Virus record (IMG/VR): IMGVR_UViG_2706794673_000008
Source: a virus
Lineage: Duplodnaviria > Heunggongvirae > Uroviricota > Caudoviricetes
Strand: one strand, 5' to 3'
DNA length: 4,927 nt
In this document: in pieces, positions 1-4,927 of the stretch
How positions within the stretch are numbered: the stretch's first letter is position 1
How the letters are laid out: every line of letters starts with the position of its first letter
Made by a program: the position numbers and the translations under genes
The notes under the pieces: generated by a model
What the model was told of the DNA's origin: nothing
Database searches by the model: none
Seen by the model: only the letters and a program-made list of their open reading frames with translations

Positions 1-110
1 TGAGGCAGCACCTGGCACGGCTGGGACGGAAGTCGCTGTCGTTCTCAAAATCGGTGGAGCTGCATGACAAAGCCATCGGGCATTATCTGAACATAAAACA
101 CTATCAATAA
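1..110 (+). CDS. insB: IS1 transposase InsB, C-terminal fragment (5' end outside window)
   Basis: Frame with codons starting at 3 reads ...[35 protein letters not shown] then TAA at 108-110, the recalled InsB C-terminus. Confidence 0.8.
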
Positions 111-125
111 GTTGGAGTCATTACC
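1..125 (+). mobile_element. IS1 right end (3' portion including the right terminal inverted repeat); the rest of the element lies outside the window
   Basis: Sequence 1-125 matches the 3' end of IS1 as I remember it, ending ...CAATAAGTTGGAGTCATTACC at 125. One difference from the canonical copy I recall (AAAGCC vs AAAGTC near position 73). Confidence 0.9.
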
Positions 126-132
126 CCAATTT

Positions 133-146
133 TTTACGTACGTAAA
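133..146. promoter_or_regulatory. Perfect 14-bp palindrome TTTACGTACGTAAA, 8 bp from the IS1 end and about 155 bp upstream of the porin start
   Basis: Read directly: positions 133-146 are self-complementary. Function unknown; candidate dimeric-regulator site. Confidence 0.2.
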
Positions 147-214
147 CCACTAAATGATATTTGCGAGAATGCTACCGAGTATTGAAAACACCACTACAAA
201 TACATAAGCAAATC

Positions 215-235
215 CCAACAAATAACCAACAAATA
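215..235 (+). repeat. Tandem direct repeat CCAACAAATA x2 with 11-bp period upstream of porin gene
   Basis: CCAACAAATA at 215-224 and again at 226-235, separated by one A. Spacing of one helical turn, 67-87 bp upstream of ATG 302; resembles response-regulator direct-repeat sites in general architecture only. Confidence 0.3.
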
Positions 236-301
236 GATTAGATGAATATTTATCGCGCAATGACATCATTTTTTAATAATAGTTCAAAAAAAGGGCTCAC
301 G

Positions 302-1384
302 ATGAAAAAATTAACAGTGGCAATTTCTGCTGTAGCTGCATCAGTACTGATGGCGATGTCTGCTCAGGCAGCTGAAATTTATAATAAAGACAGTAACAAG
401 CTGGATCTGTACGGGAAAGTTAATGCTAAGCACTACTTCTCCTCTAATGATGCAGATGATGGTGATACTACTTATGCCCGTCTTGGCTTCAAAGGTGAAA
501 CCCAAATCAACGATCAACTGACTGGTTTCGGTCAGTGGGAATATGAATTCAAAGGCAACCGCGCTGAATCTCAAGGTTCCTCCAAAGATAAAACCCGTCT
601 TGCCTTCGCTGGCCTGAAATTCGGTGACTACGGCTCCATCGATTACGGCCGTAACTACGGTGTAGCATACGACATCGGTGCGTGGACTGACGTCCTGCCA
701 GAATTCGGTGGTGACACTTGGACTCAAACAGATGTGTTCATGACTGGTCGCACCACTGGTGTTGCAACTTATCGTAACAACGACTTCTTTGGTCTGGTTG
801 ATGGTCTGAACTTTGCTGCTCAGTATCAGGGTAAAAATGACCGCACTGACGTAACTGAAGCTAATGGTGATGGTTTCGGTTTCTCCACTACTTATGAGTA
901 TGAAGGATTCGGTGTAGGTGCAACCTATGCTAAATCTGACCGCACTAATAATCAGGTTATCTACGGTAACAACAGCCTGAATGCATCTGGTCAAAATGCT
1001 GAAGTATGGGCAGCTGGTCTGAAATATGATGCGAACAACATCTATCTGGCTACCACCTATTCTGAAACCCAGAACATGACTGTTTTTGGTAATAACCATA
1101 TTGCCAACAAAGCACAAAACTTCGAAGTAGTTGCACAATATCAGTTCGACTTCGGTCTGCGTCCGTCCGTTGCTTACCTGCAATCTAAAGGAAAAGACTT
1201 GGGTGCGTGGGGTGATCAGGACCTGGTTGAATATATTGATGTAGGTGCAACCTATTACTTCAACAAAAATATGTCCACTTTTGTTGATTACAAAATCAAC
1301 CTGATTGATAAGAGCGATTTCACGAAAGCATCTGGCGTTGCTACCGATGATATCGTTGCTGTAGGTATGGTTTACCAGTTCTAA
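302..1384 (+). CDS. nmpC: Prophage-encoded general porin, NmpC/Lc (OmpC/OmpF/PhoE) family, 360 aa, apparently intact
   Basis: ATG 302 with AAGGG at 291-295. Signal peptide [23 protein letters not shown] then mature AEIYNK..., and C-terminal ...AVGMVYQF with terminal Phe typical of beta-barrel porins. Strongly resembles NmpC/Lc lambdoid porins from memory. The ORF-track start at 242 adds 20 non-signal residues and is not favoured. Confidence 0.9.
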
Positions 1385-1399
1385 TTTGATTACTAAAAG

Positions 1400-1455
1400 A
1401 TATGTTGCGGGAGGCTTTGCCTCCCCAACATATAAGTGGCTCCCTCAAGCCACTT
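1400..1455 (+). other. Two adjacent stem-loops in porin 3' UTR
   Basis: ATATGTTGCGGGAGGC / GCCTCCCCAACATAT (about 15-bp stem with one bulge, short loop) followed by AAGTGGCT-CCCTCA-AGCCACTT (8-bp stem). Read directly. Confidence 0.5.
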
Positions 1456-1520
1456 CCTTTAGGAGCACAACCTTGCTTCTAACTATATAAACCTTCTGTT
1501 ATATATTACCCTTTATTTTT

Positions 1521-1545
1521 GGGGGCGTTGCAACGCCCCATTTTT
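1521..1545 (+). terminator. Rho-independent terminator for the porin transcript
   Basis: Perfect GC-rich palindrome GGGGCGTTGCAACGCCCC (1521-1539; 7-bp stem around a TTGCAA centre) followed by ATTTTTAATAATTTTT. On the minus strand the stem is followed by A-rich sequence, so it is not a terminator in that direction. Confidence 0.65.
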
Positions 1546-1572
1546 AATAATTTTTAGTAAACAATTGGCATA

Positions 1573-1956
1573 TTAATTAGAGTTATTAACAACGATATCC
1601 ATCTCTAACCGGATATCTAATGCCATTAACATCCCTTCAATTATGCCCTCAGCCTTCTGTAACCTTTTCCCGATATAACCATCAGAGCAGCAATGCTTAC
1701 CTGCCAGTGACATGAATGTCATACCGACTACATAATAATCTACTAATAAATCGTGCAAATCGCTGTTGTTCTTTTTCAGACGGGCCATGCACCCGCAAAT
1801 AATCATCGCGTCATCGTCACAACATTGCGGGCGAGATTTTACTTTTGAAGTAATTAATCCCTTAAAACCGGCGGCAATGGACGACCAGGTCACATCTTCA
1901 TGATTATTAGCCGCCCACGCTCCCCAACGCTCAAGAACCATCTGAATATCACGCAT
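1573..1956 (-). CDS. quuD: Lambdoid late-gene antiterminator Q (QuuD-like), 127 aa
   Basis: ATG at 1956 with GGAG 7 nt upstream on the minus strand. Protein [24 protein letters not shown]... with Cys-rich CCDDD/CGC/HCC motifs, matching my recollection of DLP12 QuuD. The ORF-track TTG start at 1971 is rejected. Confidence 0.85.
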
Positions 1957-2041
1957 CAACTTACTCCACAAAAATCAGACCAGAACGCCAATTACAAGCA
2001 AAAATCAACAAAACAGTATTAGTTGATTGTTATCTCTGACT

Positions 2042-2182
2042 TCATACTCCTGCTCCTGTCAGGGTTTTGGCGTAATTCTTCAGTATTCGGTAATCGGTCA
2101 AAACAGAACCGGGGAAACGATATAAGCGCAGATGCCCCCAGCGGTGGCGAAGAAGTTCTGCCATATAAAACTCAAACATCAT
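2042..2182 (-). CDS. ylcG: Small nin-region protein YlcG-like, 46 aa
   Basis: ATGATG start at 2182 overlapping the rusA stop (ATGA); translation [46 protein letters not shown]; TGA at 2042-2044. Sits between rusA and Q as in DLP12. Not in the supplied ORF track (below its length cut-off). Confidence 0.6.
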
Positions 2183-2541
2183 TCATTCCCCATTTCGGTG
2201 ATGGTCAGTTCCAGCCTCCCACCTTTGGTAACAGGCATCTTCACAACGCGGTAATCAACGACCTGAGCATCATCCAGCCAGAAACCTGCTTTGGTGAGTG
2301 CGTCAAAAGCGGCTTTTTGCAGATTATCCAGGTCACGGCGACGGCGATCCGGCATGTGGCACTCAATACGGATTTTCACTGGCATAGCCAGGCCGATATC
2401 CAGCATTGCGTTTTTAATGATTCGGGTGACGTTATCGCGGTATGCCTGCCCTTCTGCGCTGATGTGTGTGCGCCCGCGATTATGGCGGTAATAGCGGTTA
2501 TTGCTCGGAGGCCAGGGTAATGTGATGCTGTAGGTATTCAC
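2179..2541 (-). CDS. rusA: Holliday-junction resolvase RusA, 120 aa
   Basis: GTG start at 2541 overlapping the ybcO stop (GTGA). Protein [26 protein letters not shown]...[13 protein letters not shown] matches recalled RusA essentially along its length. Confidence 0.9.
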
Positions 2542-2828
2542 GCCTTAATAACCCCCTCTTTCAGCCAGATAACCTGCGTTCTCGCCATACCTTCCAGCGC
2601 GCATTCTTTTGCATACTCAGCATCGACAAAATATGTGCGGCGGTCGATTTCGTCGTGACAGGCAGAACATGCAATGGTGGCAATCAGGTCTGGCGGTTTG
2701 ATACCGGTACCGCACAATCCAGCCAGCCGGATATGTGCCAGTACTGACGTTTCAGGATTGCCATTACATACGCCAGGGATTCTTACCTGGCATTCCCGAC
2801 CACGCGCTGCTTTTCTCAAATCAGCCAT
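2538..2828 (-). CDS. ybcO: YbcO-like nin-region protein (Cys-rich, putative nuclease, DUF1364-type), 96 aa
   Basis: ATG at 2828 preceded by AGGAGG; protein [37 protein letters not shown]...[11 protein letters not shown]... The ORF-track upstream start at 2867 is a TTG inside ninE and is rejected. Confidence 0.8.
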
Positions 2829-2991
2829 GATTCCTCCTTGCTGCCAGTCGCAACCATTTTTTATCAACCAGGCTAGCGGTATATCCGAGCAGTGTTGGTA
2901 TTTCGGATGGCTTCAGCTCAGGCTTACGCTTACGACGATTTGATACTCTGTAGATGTGCCCGTTCATGACACGAATAAGCGGTGTAGCCAT
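2821..2991 (-). CDS. ninE: NinE-family protein, 56 aa
   Basis: Hand translation of the minus strand: [56 protein letters not shown], stop TGA at 2821-2823. GGAGG upstream; start shares one base with the ybcN stop (TAATG); 8-nt overlap with the ybcO start. Not in the supplied ORF track (below its length cut-off). Confidence 0.75.
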   Translation of the reverse strand: MATPLIRVMNGHIYRVSNRRKRKPELKPSEIPTLLGYTASLVDKKWLRLAARRNHG

Positions 2992-3446
2992 TACGCCTCC
3001 TGCTTATCGCGCAGCTGCTGGTATTCACAGCTCTGCGGAATTGTCAGGTGGCAGCCGATATTCATCGCCCAGGCTTCGACTTTGCACAGGAAGATGTACA
3101 TCTCGCCGGTTTCCAGCTCTGACGTATGGCGGAGGGATTGGACGGTGGTGACCTCGCCGGACACGACATCTACACGGTCTTTGCTTTCGTAGCCGAGATA
3201 GGTGTGCTTCATCGCGTCTTTGACCCACTCAGGCGTAGCGAAGGTCTTGCCGCGGGCGATGAGATATTCGCTGATCTCCGTGTACCACATGTGGCTGAGC
3301 GCGTTCTGCGACAGGCTGCGCTTCTCGCGCCACGGCTTAACCTGCAGGCGTAAGCATTGCCCGGCATCCAGCAATGGCTGAATCTGCTGGCCGATGGCCG
3401 CGAAGTTACCGCGATGGAGTTTGATGCCGTCTACTGGCAGAGTCAT
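2991..3446 (-). CDS. ybcN: YbcN / NinB(Orf)-family recombination protein, 151 aa
   Basis: ATG at 3446 with GGGAGG upstream; contains an RSLSQNALSHMW motif resembling lambda NinB/Orf; position immediately upstream of ninE as in lambdoid nin regions. Confidence 0.85.
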   Translation of the reverse strand: MTLPVDGIKLHRGNFAAIGQQIQPLLDAGQCLRLQVKPWREKRSLSQNALSHMWYTEISEYLIARGKTFATPEWVKDAMKHTYLGYESKDRVDVVSGEVTTVQSLRHTSELETGEMYIFLCKVEAWAMNIGCHLTIPQSCEYQQLRDKQEA

Positions 3447-3538
3447 ACGGCCTCCCTAACGGAAACCGCAGAATGCAGAAAATCGCAGGTGCATTTCTGC
3501 ATCTGTGACAAGGTGATGAGTTCAGATTGTGGTCGCAT
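3443..3538 (-). CDS. 31-aa leader ORF translationally coupled to ybcN (possibly YlcH-like)
   Basis: Minus-strand ATG at 3538 directly after an in-frame TAA, with AAGGGGA upstream; translation MRPQSELITLSQMQKCTCDFLHSAVSVREAV; its TGA overlaps the ybcN ATG (ATGA). Identity with ylcH not verified. Not in the supplied ORF track (below its length cut-off). Confidence 0.35.
   Translation of the reverse strand: MRPQSELITLSQMQKCTCDFLHSAVSVREAV
3473..3502 (-). other. Inverted repeat ATGCAGAAA-N12-TTTCTGCAT inside the leader ORF, just upstream of the ybcN ribosome-binding site
   Basis: Perfect 9-bp arms read directly. On the minus-strand RNA it is followed by moderately U-rich UCUGCGGUUUCC; candidate attenuator or weak terminator. 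Confidence 0.3.
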
Positions 3539-3557
3539 TTAAGTCCCCTTAAATGCG
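3534..3557 (-). promoter_or_regulatory. Stem-loop (10-bp stem, 4-nt loop) enclosing the SD and start codon of the leader ORF
   Basis: CGCATTTAAG-TCCC-CTTAAATGCG on the + strand. On the minus-strand RNA the leader-ORF ATG (3538-3536) lies in the stem and its SD (GGGGA) overlaps the loop. Confidence 0.3.
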
Positions 3558-3594
3558 CAGAAGTCACCGGAGTTGTTCAGGCTCCGATGAGAGG

Positions 3595-3623
3595 ATTATG
3601 GCGGATTGATTACGATAAATCAA
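3595..3623 (-). promoter_or_regulatory. Candidate sigma70 promoter for the minus-strand nin operon
   Basis: Minus-strand -35 TTGATT (3623-3618), 17-bp spacer, -10 CATAAT (3600-3595). Would place a transcription start about 50 bp upstream of the leader ORF. Confidence 0.3.
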
Positions 3624-3645
3624 AACTATCTTGAAGCCAAAACAG

Positions 3646-3674
3646 TGATCTTCGCTTTAAAAACCTTGTATACT
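3646..3674 (+). promoter_or_regulatory. Candidate promoter for the + strand cargo operon (divergent from the nin promoter)
   Basis: -10-like TATACT at 3669-3674 with TG immediately upstream; -35 poorly matched (TGATCT at 3646-3651). Weak call. Confidence 0.2.
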
Positions 3675-3710
3675 TTCACCTAATCACAGCCAGAACTATG
3701 GATCTAACCA

Positions 3711-4088
3711 ATGACCAACAAAGAAAACAAAGATAAATATATTAACAAGTTCAAGAAAGAGCTTTCAAAATATATACAACCAACTGCTGGAGTGGACATT
3801 CAATTATTTAACTCTAAGGATGGTGGTGGTGTAATTAAAGCCACTTTGAATAGAAGTGGAAAAAGAAAATCATCTATTGCTGGTAATTTTACTAAATTAG
3901 GTGAGGCAATTACCTCGAGTGGGCAGAGGGTTTTTGGTGGTGATCTATCAAATGTGAATTTTTACGGAACAAATACGATTTTTGATGGAGATACAATATT
4001 TTTAATTAAATCACCTGATTCAGAGGAGTGGTCATCACAAAAAGCTTCCAAAGACGTAGAGGGCATCGTATTTGGAGGGAAAAAATGA
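3711..4088 (+). CDS. Hypothetical protein, 125 aa, soluble, Lys-rich N-terminus and Gly-rich beta-like core; AT-rich codon usage
   Basis: ATG 3711 to TGA 4086-4088; no signal peptide or TM segment; region is visibly much more AT-rich than the flanking nin genes. No family recognised. Confidence 0.6.
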   Translation: MTNKENKDKYINKFKKELSKYIQPTAGVDIQLFNSKDGGGVIKATLNRSGKRKSSIAGNFTKLGEAITSSGQRVFGGDLSNVNFYGTNTIFDGDTIFLIKSPDSEEWSSQKASKDVEGIVFGGKK

Positions 4089-4132
4089 TTAACATTACTA
4101 CTAAGGATGCACTCAAGTCAGTGGTGAAGTAA
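4085..4132 (+). CDS. 15-codon micro-ORF (MINITTKDALKSVVK) with a strong SD, overlapping the stop of the upstream gene; possibly the true 5' end of the downstream membrane-protein gene broken by a frameshift
   Basis: GGAGGG at 4073-4078, then A6, then ATG 4085 overlapping TGA 4086-4088 (ATGA); stop TAA at 4130-4132. Overlaps the open part of the downstream gene's frame between 4105 and 4129. Confidence 0.25.
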   Translation: MINITTKDALKSVVK

Positions 4133-4170
4133 GAGATCTAGTAATTCTTCTTGAAACTGATGGAAAAACG

Positions 4171-4512
4171 GTGTCTGATTATTTGCAGCCAATCCCTCCC
4201 AAAAAAGATACACACTGGAGCATGATTTTCATTCCGGTAGCAATTTATATACTACTTAATCTTGTATACATTATTGCTCACCCATTATTTCCTGAAAAAT
4301 ATCTAAAAACATCAACATCTATATTTCTATTCATTTCCTTCATATTAAGTGCAATAGTAGCATATTTTGTTTTCCATAAGCATAAATCTGCCACTCGATC
4401 CATATGCAGCTTAGTGTTCTTAGTGTTAATTGTAGGTGCTAACGTAGGGTTTATCAGTTACAGCGACCTAACACAAAAAGCGACGCAAAAATTAGATAGT
4501 TTGTCTAAATAA
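4171..4512 (+). CDS. Hypothetical small integral membrane protein (about 3 TM helices), 113 aa as drawn; start uncertain
   Basis: Three hydrophobic stretches (IFIPVAIYILLNLVYIIAHPLF, IFLFISFILSAIVAYFVF, ICSLVFLVLIVGANVGFISY). The GTG start at 4171 has only a weak SD; alternative in-frame ATG at 4222, or an upstream start at 4085 if a frameshift is assumed. TAA at 4510-4512. Confidence 0.55.
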   Translation: MSDYLQPIPPKKDTHWSMIFIPVAIYILLNLVYIIAHPLFPEKYLKTSTSIFLFISFILSAIVAYFVFHKHKSATRSICSLVFLVLIVGANVGFISYSDLTQKATQKLDSLSK

Positions 4513-4619
4513 TTATGTTGCCATGCGAAGTATGCATGGCTGCATGTCTGCCTTCCATTTAAAATGGGCTAAGACCTATAACCCTAAATATTATTCTTTA
4601 TTATCTTCTTTACCACTTC

Positions 4620-4850
4620 GGTGATGCTGCCAACTTACTGATTTAGTGTATGATGGTGTTTTTGAGGTGCTCCAGTGGCTTCTGTTTCTATCAGCTGTCC
4701 CTCCTGTTCAGCTACTGACGGGGTGGTGCGTAACGGCAAAAGCACTGCCGGACATCAGCGCTATCTCTGCTCTCACTGCCGTAAAACATGGCAACTGCAG
4801 TTCACTTACACCGCTTCTCAACCCGGTACGCACCAGAAAATCATTGATAT
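4620..4850 (+). mobile_element. IS1 left end (left inverted repeat plus 5' part of insA), truncated internally at about 4850
   Basis: GGTGATGCTGCCAACTTACTGATTTAGTGTATGATGG... matches the recalled IS1 left end. Similarity to IS1 stops after ...AAAATCATTGATAT (4850), where IS1 continues GGCCATG but the window continues TGTCAGCGCC. Confidence 0.9.
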
Positions 4851-4878
4851 TGTCAGCGCCAGTGATATAAGACGGTAA
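4675..4878 (+). pseudogene. insA: insA' : IS1 InsA truncated after about residue 58 and fused to 9 unrelated codons
   Basis: GTG 4675; [58 protein letters not shown] matches InsA, then IVSASDIRR and stop; the native InsA C-terminus is absent. Confidence 0.75.
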
Positions 4879-4927
4879 TTCGCCATTTGGATTGTCCGCT
4901 CCACCCAACATGTTGTTTCCTTAAGGT

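Follow-up and report, generated by a model that had tools for sequence, protein, structure and literature searches.

Several enterobacterial small RNAs (sRNAs), among them CpxQ, MicL, DapZ and SroC, are derived from the 3′ untranslated region (UTR) of an mRNA and share its terminator. The closest described system to the element analysed here is IpeX, an RNA from a phage porin gene. In the passages of the literature that treat it, IpeX has a length of 167 nt (PMC12197685), and is also attributed to phage PA-2 (PMC8065619). It is described as being transcribed within the porin mRNA, from the porin promoter, and processed afterwards, and the resulting RNA, about 167 nt long, as reducing OmpC and OmpF post-transcriptionally. 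The IpeX locus is a textbook-listed prophage sRNA locus, and finding it is in itself ordinary.

The window analysed here, a 4,927-nt stretch of the virus record IMGVR_UViG_2706794673_000008, represents the nin-Q-porin part of a lambdoid prophage resembling DLP12. Comparison with the known loci showed that positions 1385-1545 of this window are very probably the ipeX ortholog, the structured 3′ UTR of an Lc/NmpC-type porin gene in lambdoid prophages. The IpeX element is already known and very common; this analysis adds the strand and linkage of the structure, two homolog classes that have diverged, a pairing model at odds with the literature, and a caveat on expression. Like the four sRNAs named above, IpeX comes from an mRNA 3′ end, shares the terminator, and has a conserved seed upstream of it, a U-rich tract and a poly-U tail. 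In contrast to them, IpeX is phage-borne and longer, has three extra 5′ hairpins, and has a parent mRNA that encodes a porin replacing the silenced porins.

Identity and structure of the porin 3′ UTR

The identity of the region was anchored on the K-12 DLP12 nmpC and PA-2 lc loci, which are named for ipeX in the literature. Positions 1385-1545 had 98% column identity with the spacer from the nmpC stop to quuD in DLP12 of K-12 MG1655, and 96.6% identity with the phage PA-2 lc record (J02580.1). The distance from stop to terminator was 161 nt here and 162 nt in K-12, counted from the stop to where the first U-run ends. The porin gene closes with TAA (1382-1384); its product was 90% identical to Lc of PA-2, and phage PhiR34_1 has a 100%-identical porin. 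In DLP12 and PA-2 the element had the same position between porin stop and terminator, and all hairpins and the terminator were kept; the sequence differences fell in loops, in unpaired bases or in exchanges of G-U and A-U pairs.

The earlier note, made from the letters of the sequence, had described about 160 nt between the porin stop and a strong rho-independent terminator, at least two additional stem-loops, and an equivalent of the ipeX region. These descriptions agreed with the measured length, the terminator, the folding and the two identities. The terminator-like site at 1522-1539 (GGGGCGT-TGCA-ACGCCCC) forms 7 pairs, 6 of them G-C, and is followed by ATTTTT at 1540-1545; a U-tract was found on the + strand only. 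Folded as RNA, positions 1385-1550 reached -61 kcal/mol, compared with -32.2 ± 3.6 kcal/mol for 200 dinucleotide shuffles (z = -8.0), and none of the 200 shuffles folded as well. Three robust hairpins and one weak hairpin precede the terminator (Table 1). Hairpin 4 is probably open; its conservation was unconvincing in the P7 class described below, and the 19-sequence alignment gave it no support.

A U-rich tract (1510-1521) precedes the terminator. By sequence features alone, positions 1510-1545 had the pattern of an Hfq-type 3′ module, with CCCUUUAUUUUU followed by a hairpin and then AUUUUU.

Among 5,426 complete E. coli genomes, 2,510 contained the UTR sequence; 36 phage records had it as well. 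The order of Q on the minus strand, the element, and the porin on the + strand was identical in all phage and prophage copies examined. The UTR variant of the window was the commonest among the fetched viral contigs, and it was identical in phages PhiR34_1, PhiR68_2 and Chlobot. A covariance model built from the UTR scored 205.5 bits at the window.

Although ipeX was labelled 'REP' by the tool of one paper, a REP or other dispersed palindromic repeat was ruled out, because the UTR sequence occupied a median of 1 place per E. coli genome (maximum 3 places).

The element is easily missed. A cmscan of the whole window against Rfam 15 at E ≤ 1 matched no family, the MicC and MicF families included. 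The RefSeq record of MG1655 (NC_000913.3, 574340-574528) has micC and micF annotated and no ipeX feature, and among the matches listed, the PGAP annotations had no feature under the full-length matches.

An inverted repeat was also observed on the two flanks of the element (1386-1403 and 1547-1564, 18 nt, 83% complementary); its arms could pair in read-through transcripts only.

Strand and gene linkage of the UTR structure

The convergent Q gene is a neighbour of the IpeX element and lies outside it. As lambdoid phages place a late promoter and a terminator just downstream of Q, ownership of the structure by the Q strand was tested. The spacer might be a late-gene leader of the pR′-tR′ type, like the 6S RNA region of lambda, with the hairpins serving mainly the opposite strand and the porin-strand structure being incidental. 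The likeness to lambda lies in a structured region of similar size immediately downstream of Q, and in every lambdoid copy the spacer does lie directly downstream of Q. In addition, CUUUUAG follows hairpin 1 on the minus strand, and a -10-like repeat, hexamers resembling a promoter and a clean terminator on the Q strand can be read in the Q-to-blc spacer of phage Lambda_2E9. The difference from lambda is that the IpeX structure and terminator are on the porin strand and linked to the porin. On the evidence below, the late-leader explanation is very improbable, and the UTR structure belongs to the porin-sense RNA and goes with the porin gene rather than with Q.

Perfect linkage of Q allele, spacer and porin was seen throughout the phage collection (35 complete genomes and the PA-2 fragment). 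Since Q and the element could not be separated there, Q homologs from other genera and phage P7 were used. Of 30 Q homologs from other genomes, just three had the porin and the spacer, and these had a 100%-identical Q. The 27 others, which were 36-87% identical and came from Citrobacter, Trabulsiella, Pantoea, Xenorhabdus, Providencia, Morganella and Shigella, had neither porin nor spacer, and the covariance model found nothing significant at them. Conversely, one E. coli copy (L125) retained the UTR though Q was deleted.

Phage P7 and related P1-type plasmids carried an nmpC homolog (82% amino acid identity) adjoining ssb instead of Q. The 3′ UTR of this homolog was undetected by blastn. Folded independently, it showed the same order of elements (z = -5.7), with hairpin 1 (AUAUG...CAUAU), hairpin 2 (GUGGC-CCCUCA-GCCAC), hairpin 3 and the terminator. 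A covariance model trained on 12 lambdoid variants only recovered the P1/P7-type UTRs at full length on the porin strand (E = 4e-21 to 1e-19). The P7-class UTR was found in 116 plasmid records. A third UTR class (L162), 78% identical, adjoined a diverged Q gene; the inner stem of its hairpin 1 was completely rewritten and its pairing was kept.

Between the classes, UTR identity was 54% overall, and two windows reached 13 of 15 identical positions, one in hairpin 2 and one in the unpaired stretch GUUAU(A/U)UAUUACC. In both the P7 class and L162, compensatory changes were seen in the outer and the inner stem of hairpin 1. In hairpin 2 of the P7 class, an A-U pair was changed to G-C and a U-A pair to A-U, and the loop CCCUCA was invariant across all classes. 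Hairpin 3 had double changes at three pairs and, at three, strand-specific G-U wobble variants that are viable on the + strand only.

The classes were aligned on the basis of the model, since MAFFT shifted their stems out of register, and six IMG contigs whose UTR had homopolymer noise were left out of the alignments. In the 19-sequence alignment, 97.9% of the cells were paired, and changes on both sides occurred at 19 pairs, compared with 0-6 when partners were slid and with 0 of 500 shuffles, this covariation coming from effectively three clades in an alignment fitted to the model. G-U, tolerated on the porin strand only, occurred at 9 pair positions and A-C, tolerated on the Q strand only, at 2. 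Within the lambdoid class, substitutions were found in 8 of 92 stem columns and in 18 of 69 other columns (p = 0.004).

No minus-strand promoter-like site or terminator was called in the spacer. PhiR34_1 has a strong intrinsic terminator on the Q strand (minus strand, 1468-1489 of locus L005; AAACCCGCCGTCGAGCGGGTTT and a T-run), about 140 nt upstream of the holin gene. Its place suggests a late leader situated beyond the porin, and for the QuuD-type late operon it is a candidate tR′; its region is missing from the window.

Phage Lambda_2E9 (L006, 3383-3538) had a Q that was 87% identical with another 3′ end, followed by a compact Q-strand unit of TTGCTG, 17 nt and TAATGT, next TGTTAGAAT and last the terminator CCAGCC...GGCTGG-T8. 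Beyond it lay blc, a convergent lipocalin gene, giving a layout of Q and then convergent cargo with a different cargo.

A lead to the phage 82 pR′ pause element, read as TAATAT-GCC-AATTGTTT on the minus strand at the Q stop, was rejected because the Q of phage 82 (229 aa) is unrelated to the 127-aa QuuD-type Q.

A porin-based scan of viral contigs returned near-identical loci only. A hairpin-2 pattern scan returned one extra class (L162) and six chance matches with no porin nearby. The 'porin' of Salmonella phage SPF_0923 belonged to a chromosomal-type ompN-uspF region, at which the model found no IpeX-like element.

Predicted pairing with ompC and ompF leader sequences

Because the conserved unpaired stretch GUUAU(A/U)UAUUACC resembles the MicC and MicF seeds, the K-12 ompC, ompF and ompA leaders and micC and micF were compared with the UTR. 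Pairing was scored by windowed duplex energies and opening energies on the K-12 leaders; full-length RNAduplex was dropped, as it produced unrealistic whole-molecule duplexes. All energies are in kcal/mol and are given as hybrid energy, with the total including accessibility in brackets.

The positive controls reached -22.1 (-16.2) for MicC on ompC and -20.3 (-15.3) for MicF on ompF. IpeX of the window and of K-12 reached -24.3 (-12.0) with ompC -29 to -7, and -18.6 (-10.2) with ompF -15 to +10. The P7-class UTR reached -23.4 (-15.9) with ompF -15 to +10 and -15.7 (-11.4) with ompC -7 to +13. With the leader of its own porin, the window IpeX reached only -8.0 (-4.3). With ompA it reached -23.0 (-8.8), and this duplex needs melting of the terminator stem. 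The original IpeX abstract is said to report that OmpA is unaffected, that ompC repression is Hfq-independent, and that ompF repression is Hfq-dependent. A long duplex with ompC and an interrupted one with ompF would be in keeping with that difference in Hfq dependence.

The predicted ompC duplex is formed by two blocks (Table 1) separated by a 5-nt internal loop. Block A faces AUAUAACAGAGGGUU of the leader with one G-U pair and covers the Shine-Dalgarno sequence GAGGG. The 15-bp run with ompC was reached by 12 of 3,000 dinucleotide shuffles (p = 0.004), and a 17-bp run of the P7 class with ompF by 5 of 3,000 (p = 0.002). The energy z-scores were -2.5 for IpeX-ompC, -2.8 for P7-ompC and -3.8 for P7-ompF. 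The mean unpaired probability was 0.5-0.7 for the pairing segment and 0.69 for block B. The pairing segment was the best-conserved unpaired part between the classes (13 of 15 identical). Block A was invariant in the lambdoid variants except for one C-to-U change that keeps a wobble pair, and L162 likewise had one C to U. In the P7 class, the conserved segment had a nearly perfect antisense match to the start region of ompF, and likewise to ompC -7 to +13. An accessible and conserved seed facing a translation-initiation region, as expected of a base-pairing sRNA, was thus computed for ompC.

The predicted target overlaps that of MicC, which pairs with the same part of the ompC leader (MicC -30 to -15; blocks B and A of IpeX -29 to -7), and the motifs GUUAUAU and CCUUUAU(U) occur in both RNAs in the same order. 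MicC is an independent gene by ompN with its seed at the 5′ end, whereas IpeX is a 3′ UTR with its predicted seed just before the terminator. The IpeX pairing also differs in that it extends over the Shine-Dalgarno sequence and has the internal loop; with no Rfam MicC match, IpeX is no member of that family. For MicF, nucleotides 18-28 were matched by the conserved segment, especially that of the P7 class (UAUUUAUUACC), and MicF and the P7 class address the same ompF region (-15 to +10) with similar energy (-15.3 vs -15.9 kcal/mol). Overall, MicF is not homologous to IpeX and matched it in no Rfam search, and the lambdoid ompF pairing is interrupted and indistinguishable from shuffles.

Taken together, the duplex calculations slightly favour a silencing of ompC through direct base pairing, which departs from the accepted description. 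Under this model, the porin transcript would end at the intrinsic terminator and its 3′ part would accumulate as the RNA of about 167 nt described in the literature. The accessible and conserved segment 1490-1516, between hairpin 3 and the terminator, would pair with ompC -29 to -7; as the pairing covers the Shine-Dalgarno sequence, translation initiation would be blocked and the mRNA left open to decay. The ompF start region would be covered by a weaker, interrupted pairing. Hairpins 1-3 may be stabilising or processing structures, and the U-rich tract and terminator may form an Hfq-type 3′ module.

In its wider form, the model holds that IpeX is a conventional antisense sRNA whose segment 1490-1516 occludes the ompC Shine-Dalgarno sequence through a 22-bp interrupted duplex, and that the nmpC-type porin genes of lambdoid phages and P1/P7-type elements carry a retargetable anti-host-porin seed in the 3′ UTR. 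The seed would be aimed at ompC in lambdoid phages and at the ompF and ompC starts in P1/P7-type elements. The chances of this combined reading are about evenly balanced.

Several points weigh against the preferred explanation, and the three-clade basis of the covariation is one of them. A passage of a 2013 review, whose view is traced to the 2006 IpeX paper, describes IpeX as acting without base pairing, and part of another source describes a mechanism depending on more than complementarity. The significance of the IpeX-ompC energy is moderate (z = -2.5; 1 of 60 shuffles was better), the lambdoid IpeX-ompF pairing was not significant against shuffles (z = -1.5, run-length p about 0.5), and opening the target site in the ompC leader is costly (8.3 kcal/mol).

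These points bear on an alternative in which IpeX acts as the literature states, without pairing to ompC or ompF, for instance by titrating a protein or through its hairpins, and the complementarity is a by-product of AU-rich sequence. Besides the review statements, the passages of the literature that call IpeX Hfq-independent would fit it, as would hairpin 2 with its invariant CCCUCA loop, which is conserved as much as the pairing segment and could bind a protein. This alternative has to account for an antisense match of 15 + 7 bp that is centred on the ompC Shine-Dalgarno sequence and sits in the sole accessible segment conserved between the classes. The homologous segment of the P7 class has a different, equally strong match to the ompF and ompC starts, and neither the ompA leader nor the leader of the porin itself is matched. 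Action without pairing is accordingly held to be rather unlikely, and direct pairing with ompC is preferred by a small degree.

If the pairing model is true, expression of the phage porin would automatically silence the host porins that it replaces. The model is concrete and testable for an sRNA whose mechanism was described as 'not base-pairing'. With its predicted ompF-aimed seed, the nmpC UTR of P1/P7-type plasmid prophages suggests that this may be a general strategy, the silencer of the host porins being part of the very phage gene whose product takes their place. Such a strategy would be relevant to superinfection exclusion by phages and to antibiotic permeability that depends on porins.

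State of the upstream region and other features of the window

The earlier note had considered the element potentially functional since the porin is intact. The reading frame is indeed intact, and of the canonical upstream region little is left. Positions 126-235 corresponded to PA-2 1101-1210, and positions 236-301 to PA-2 about 1425-1491, which gives a deletion of about 214 bp with its junction at about 235/236 and leaves 66 bp (236-301) of canonical sequence before the ATG. The deletion removes the CRP site annotated in PA-2 at 1363-1383 together with a TTGAAA -35-like hexamer. All sequence upstream of PA-2 1101, with the CRP site at 1067-1087, has given way to the IS1 insertion sequence (junction 125/126). 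The K-12 nmpC gene is split by IS5, in contrast to the window, where the porin open reading frame (ORF) is intact but follows this deletion and IS1.

None of the 5,426 complete E. coli genomes had the deletion junction. A consensus promoter scan of the + strand at 126-301 found no promoter-like site; the scan is insensitive, as it found none in the intact PA-2 upstream region either. Expression of IpeX from this copy is doubtful because of the reported origin from the porin promoter and the loss of the upstream regulatory region. Judged from the sequence, porin and IpeX expression is in doubt together, and the RNA is probably made poorly or not at all, unless there is read-through from IS1. 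An intact ORF is thus no guarantee of an expressed unit.

A stronger version of this caveat is that the element is an inert relic, with a porin-ipeX unit that is no longer transcribed because deletion took away its regulatory region and IS1 came in its place. The loss of both CRP sites and the TTGAAA hexamer, the absence of the junction from the 5,426 genomes and the blank promoter scan all point that way, and the frameshift in a neighbouring ORF and the bracketing of the segment by IS1 copies would suit a prophage remnant in decay. Nevertheless, both the porin ORF and the entire UTR are intact and identical to those of viable phages, the same-orientation IS1 could supply read-through transcription, and the insensitive scan was blank on intact PA-2 as well. 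A relic is a possibility to be taken seriously, and somewhat doubtful on balance.

The coordinates of all features are listed in Table 1.

Table 1. Features of the window and of the diverged UTR classes (window positions unless another record is named; each hairpin was folded singly).
Feature	Position	Strand	Details
IS1 copy, 3′ (right) end, abutting the porin upstream region	1-125	+	Terminal inverted repeat 103-125; sequence multi-copy in E. coli
Porin upstream region, rearranged	126-301	+	PA-2 comparison
Lc/NmpC-type phage porin gene, intact, 360 aa	302-1384	+	Pfam Porin_1, E = 3e-153
Porin 3′ UTR, very probable IpeX region, 161 nt	1385-1545	+	
Hairpin 1, 8 + 7 bp, one bulged C	1400-1433	+	-22.2 kcal/mol
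Hairpin 2, 8 bp, loop CCCUCA	1434-1455	+	-10.4 kcal/mol
Hairpin 3, 9 bp including one G-U	1459-1482	+	-9.1 kcal/mol
Hairpin 4, weak, all A-U	1484-1505	+	-1.3 kcal/mol
Pairing block A, AACCUUCUGUUAUAU, UTR nt 106-120	1490-1504	+	Predicted 15 contiguous bp with ompC -21 to -7
Pairing block B, CCUUUAU, UTR nt 126-132	1510-1516	+	Predicted 7 bp with ompC -29 to -23
Rho-independent terminator, stem-loop 1522-1539 and A-U5 tail	1522-1545	+	-12.5 kcal/mol; stem kept in all classes
QuuD-type antiterminator Q gene, 127 aa, convergent	1573-1956	-	Pfam Phage_antitermQ, E = 3.5e-53
Genes beyond Q: ylcG, rusA, ybcO, ninE, ybcN	rusA 2179-2541; ybcN 2991-3446	-	
Two ORFs between ybcN and IS1	3711-4088 and 4171-4512	+	Without convincing Pfam family
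Second IS1, left end	from 4620		Same orientation as the first
P7-class UTR, phage P7	L041 3117-3296		
P7-class UTRs, P1-type plasmids	L122 and L123 1518-1699		
Third UTR class, 78% identical	L162 1779-1940		IMG/VR contig 2623620492_000008

An ORF of 280 aa runs antisense through the porin (341-1183, minus strand) and is presumably an artefact of the porin codon composition. The PA-2 record of 1986 lists an 'ORF1' of 69 aa (2428-2637, minus strand) antisense to the 3′ end of lc and to hairpin 1. This ORF is probably not a gene, since the window has no ORF of at least 40 aa at the equivalent place.

One of the two ORFs between ybcN and IS1 had a weak, sub-threshold match to 7TMR-DISM_7TM. In the ORF at 4085-4512, a 1-nt deletion at about 4108, relative to E. 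coli ETEC1747, causes a frameshift in a hypothetical 142-aa ORF, which now reads as a stub of 15 codons and a GTG-started ORF of 113 aa (4171-4512). The frameshift is consistent with a further sign of decay of the prophage remnant.

The identification of positions 1-125 as IS1 comes from the pairing of the terminal inverted repeat with 4620-4642, from the InsA domains in the right-hand copy (4675-4878) and, in part, from likeness to the IS1 sequence. The two copies (103-125 and 4620-4927) have the same orientation and bracket positions 126-4619. The right-hand copy ends at about 4849 and is followed by other multi-copy sequence, mostly plasmid-borne.

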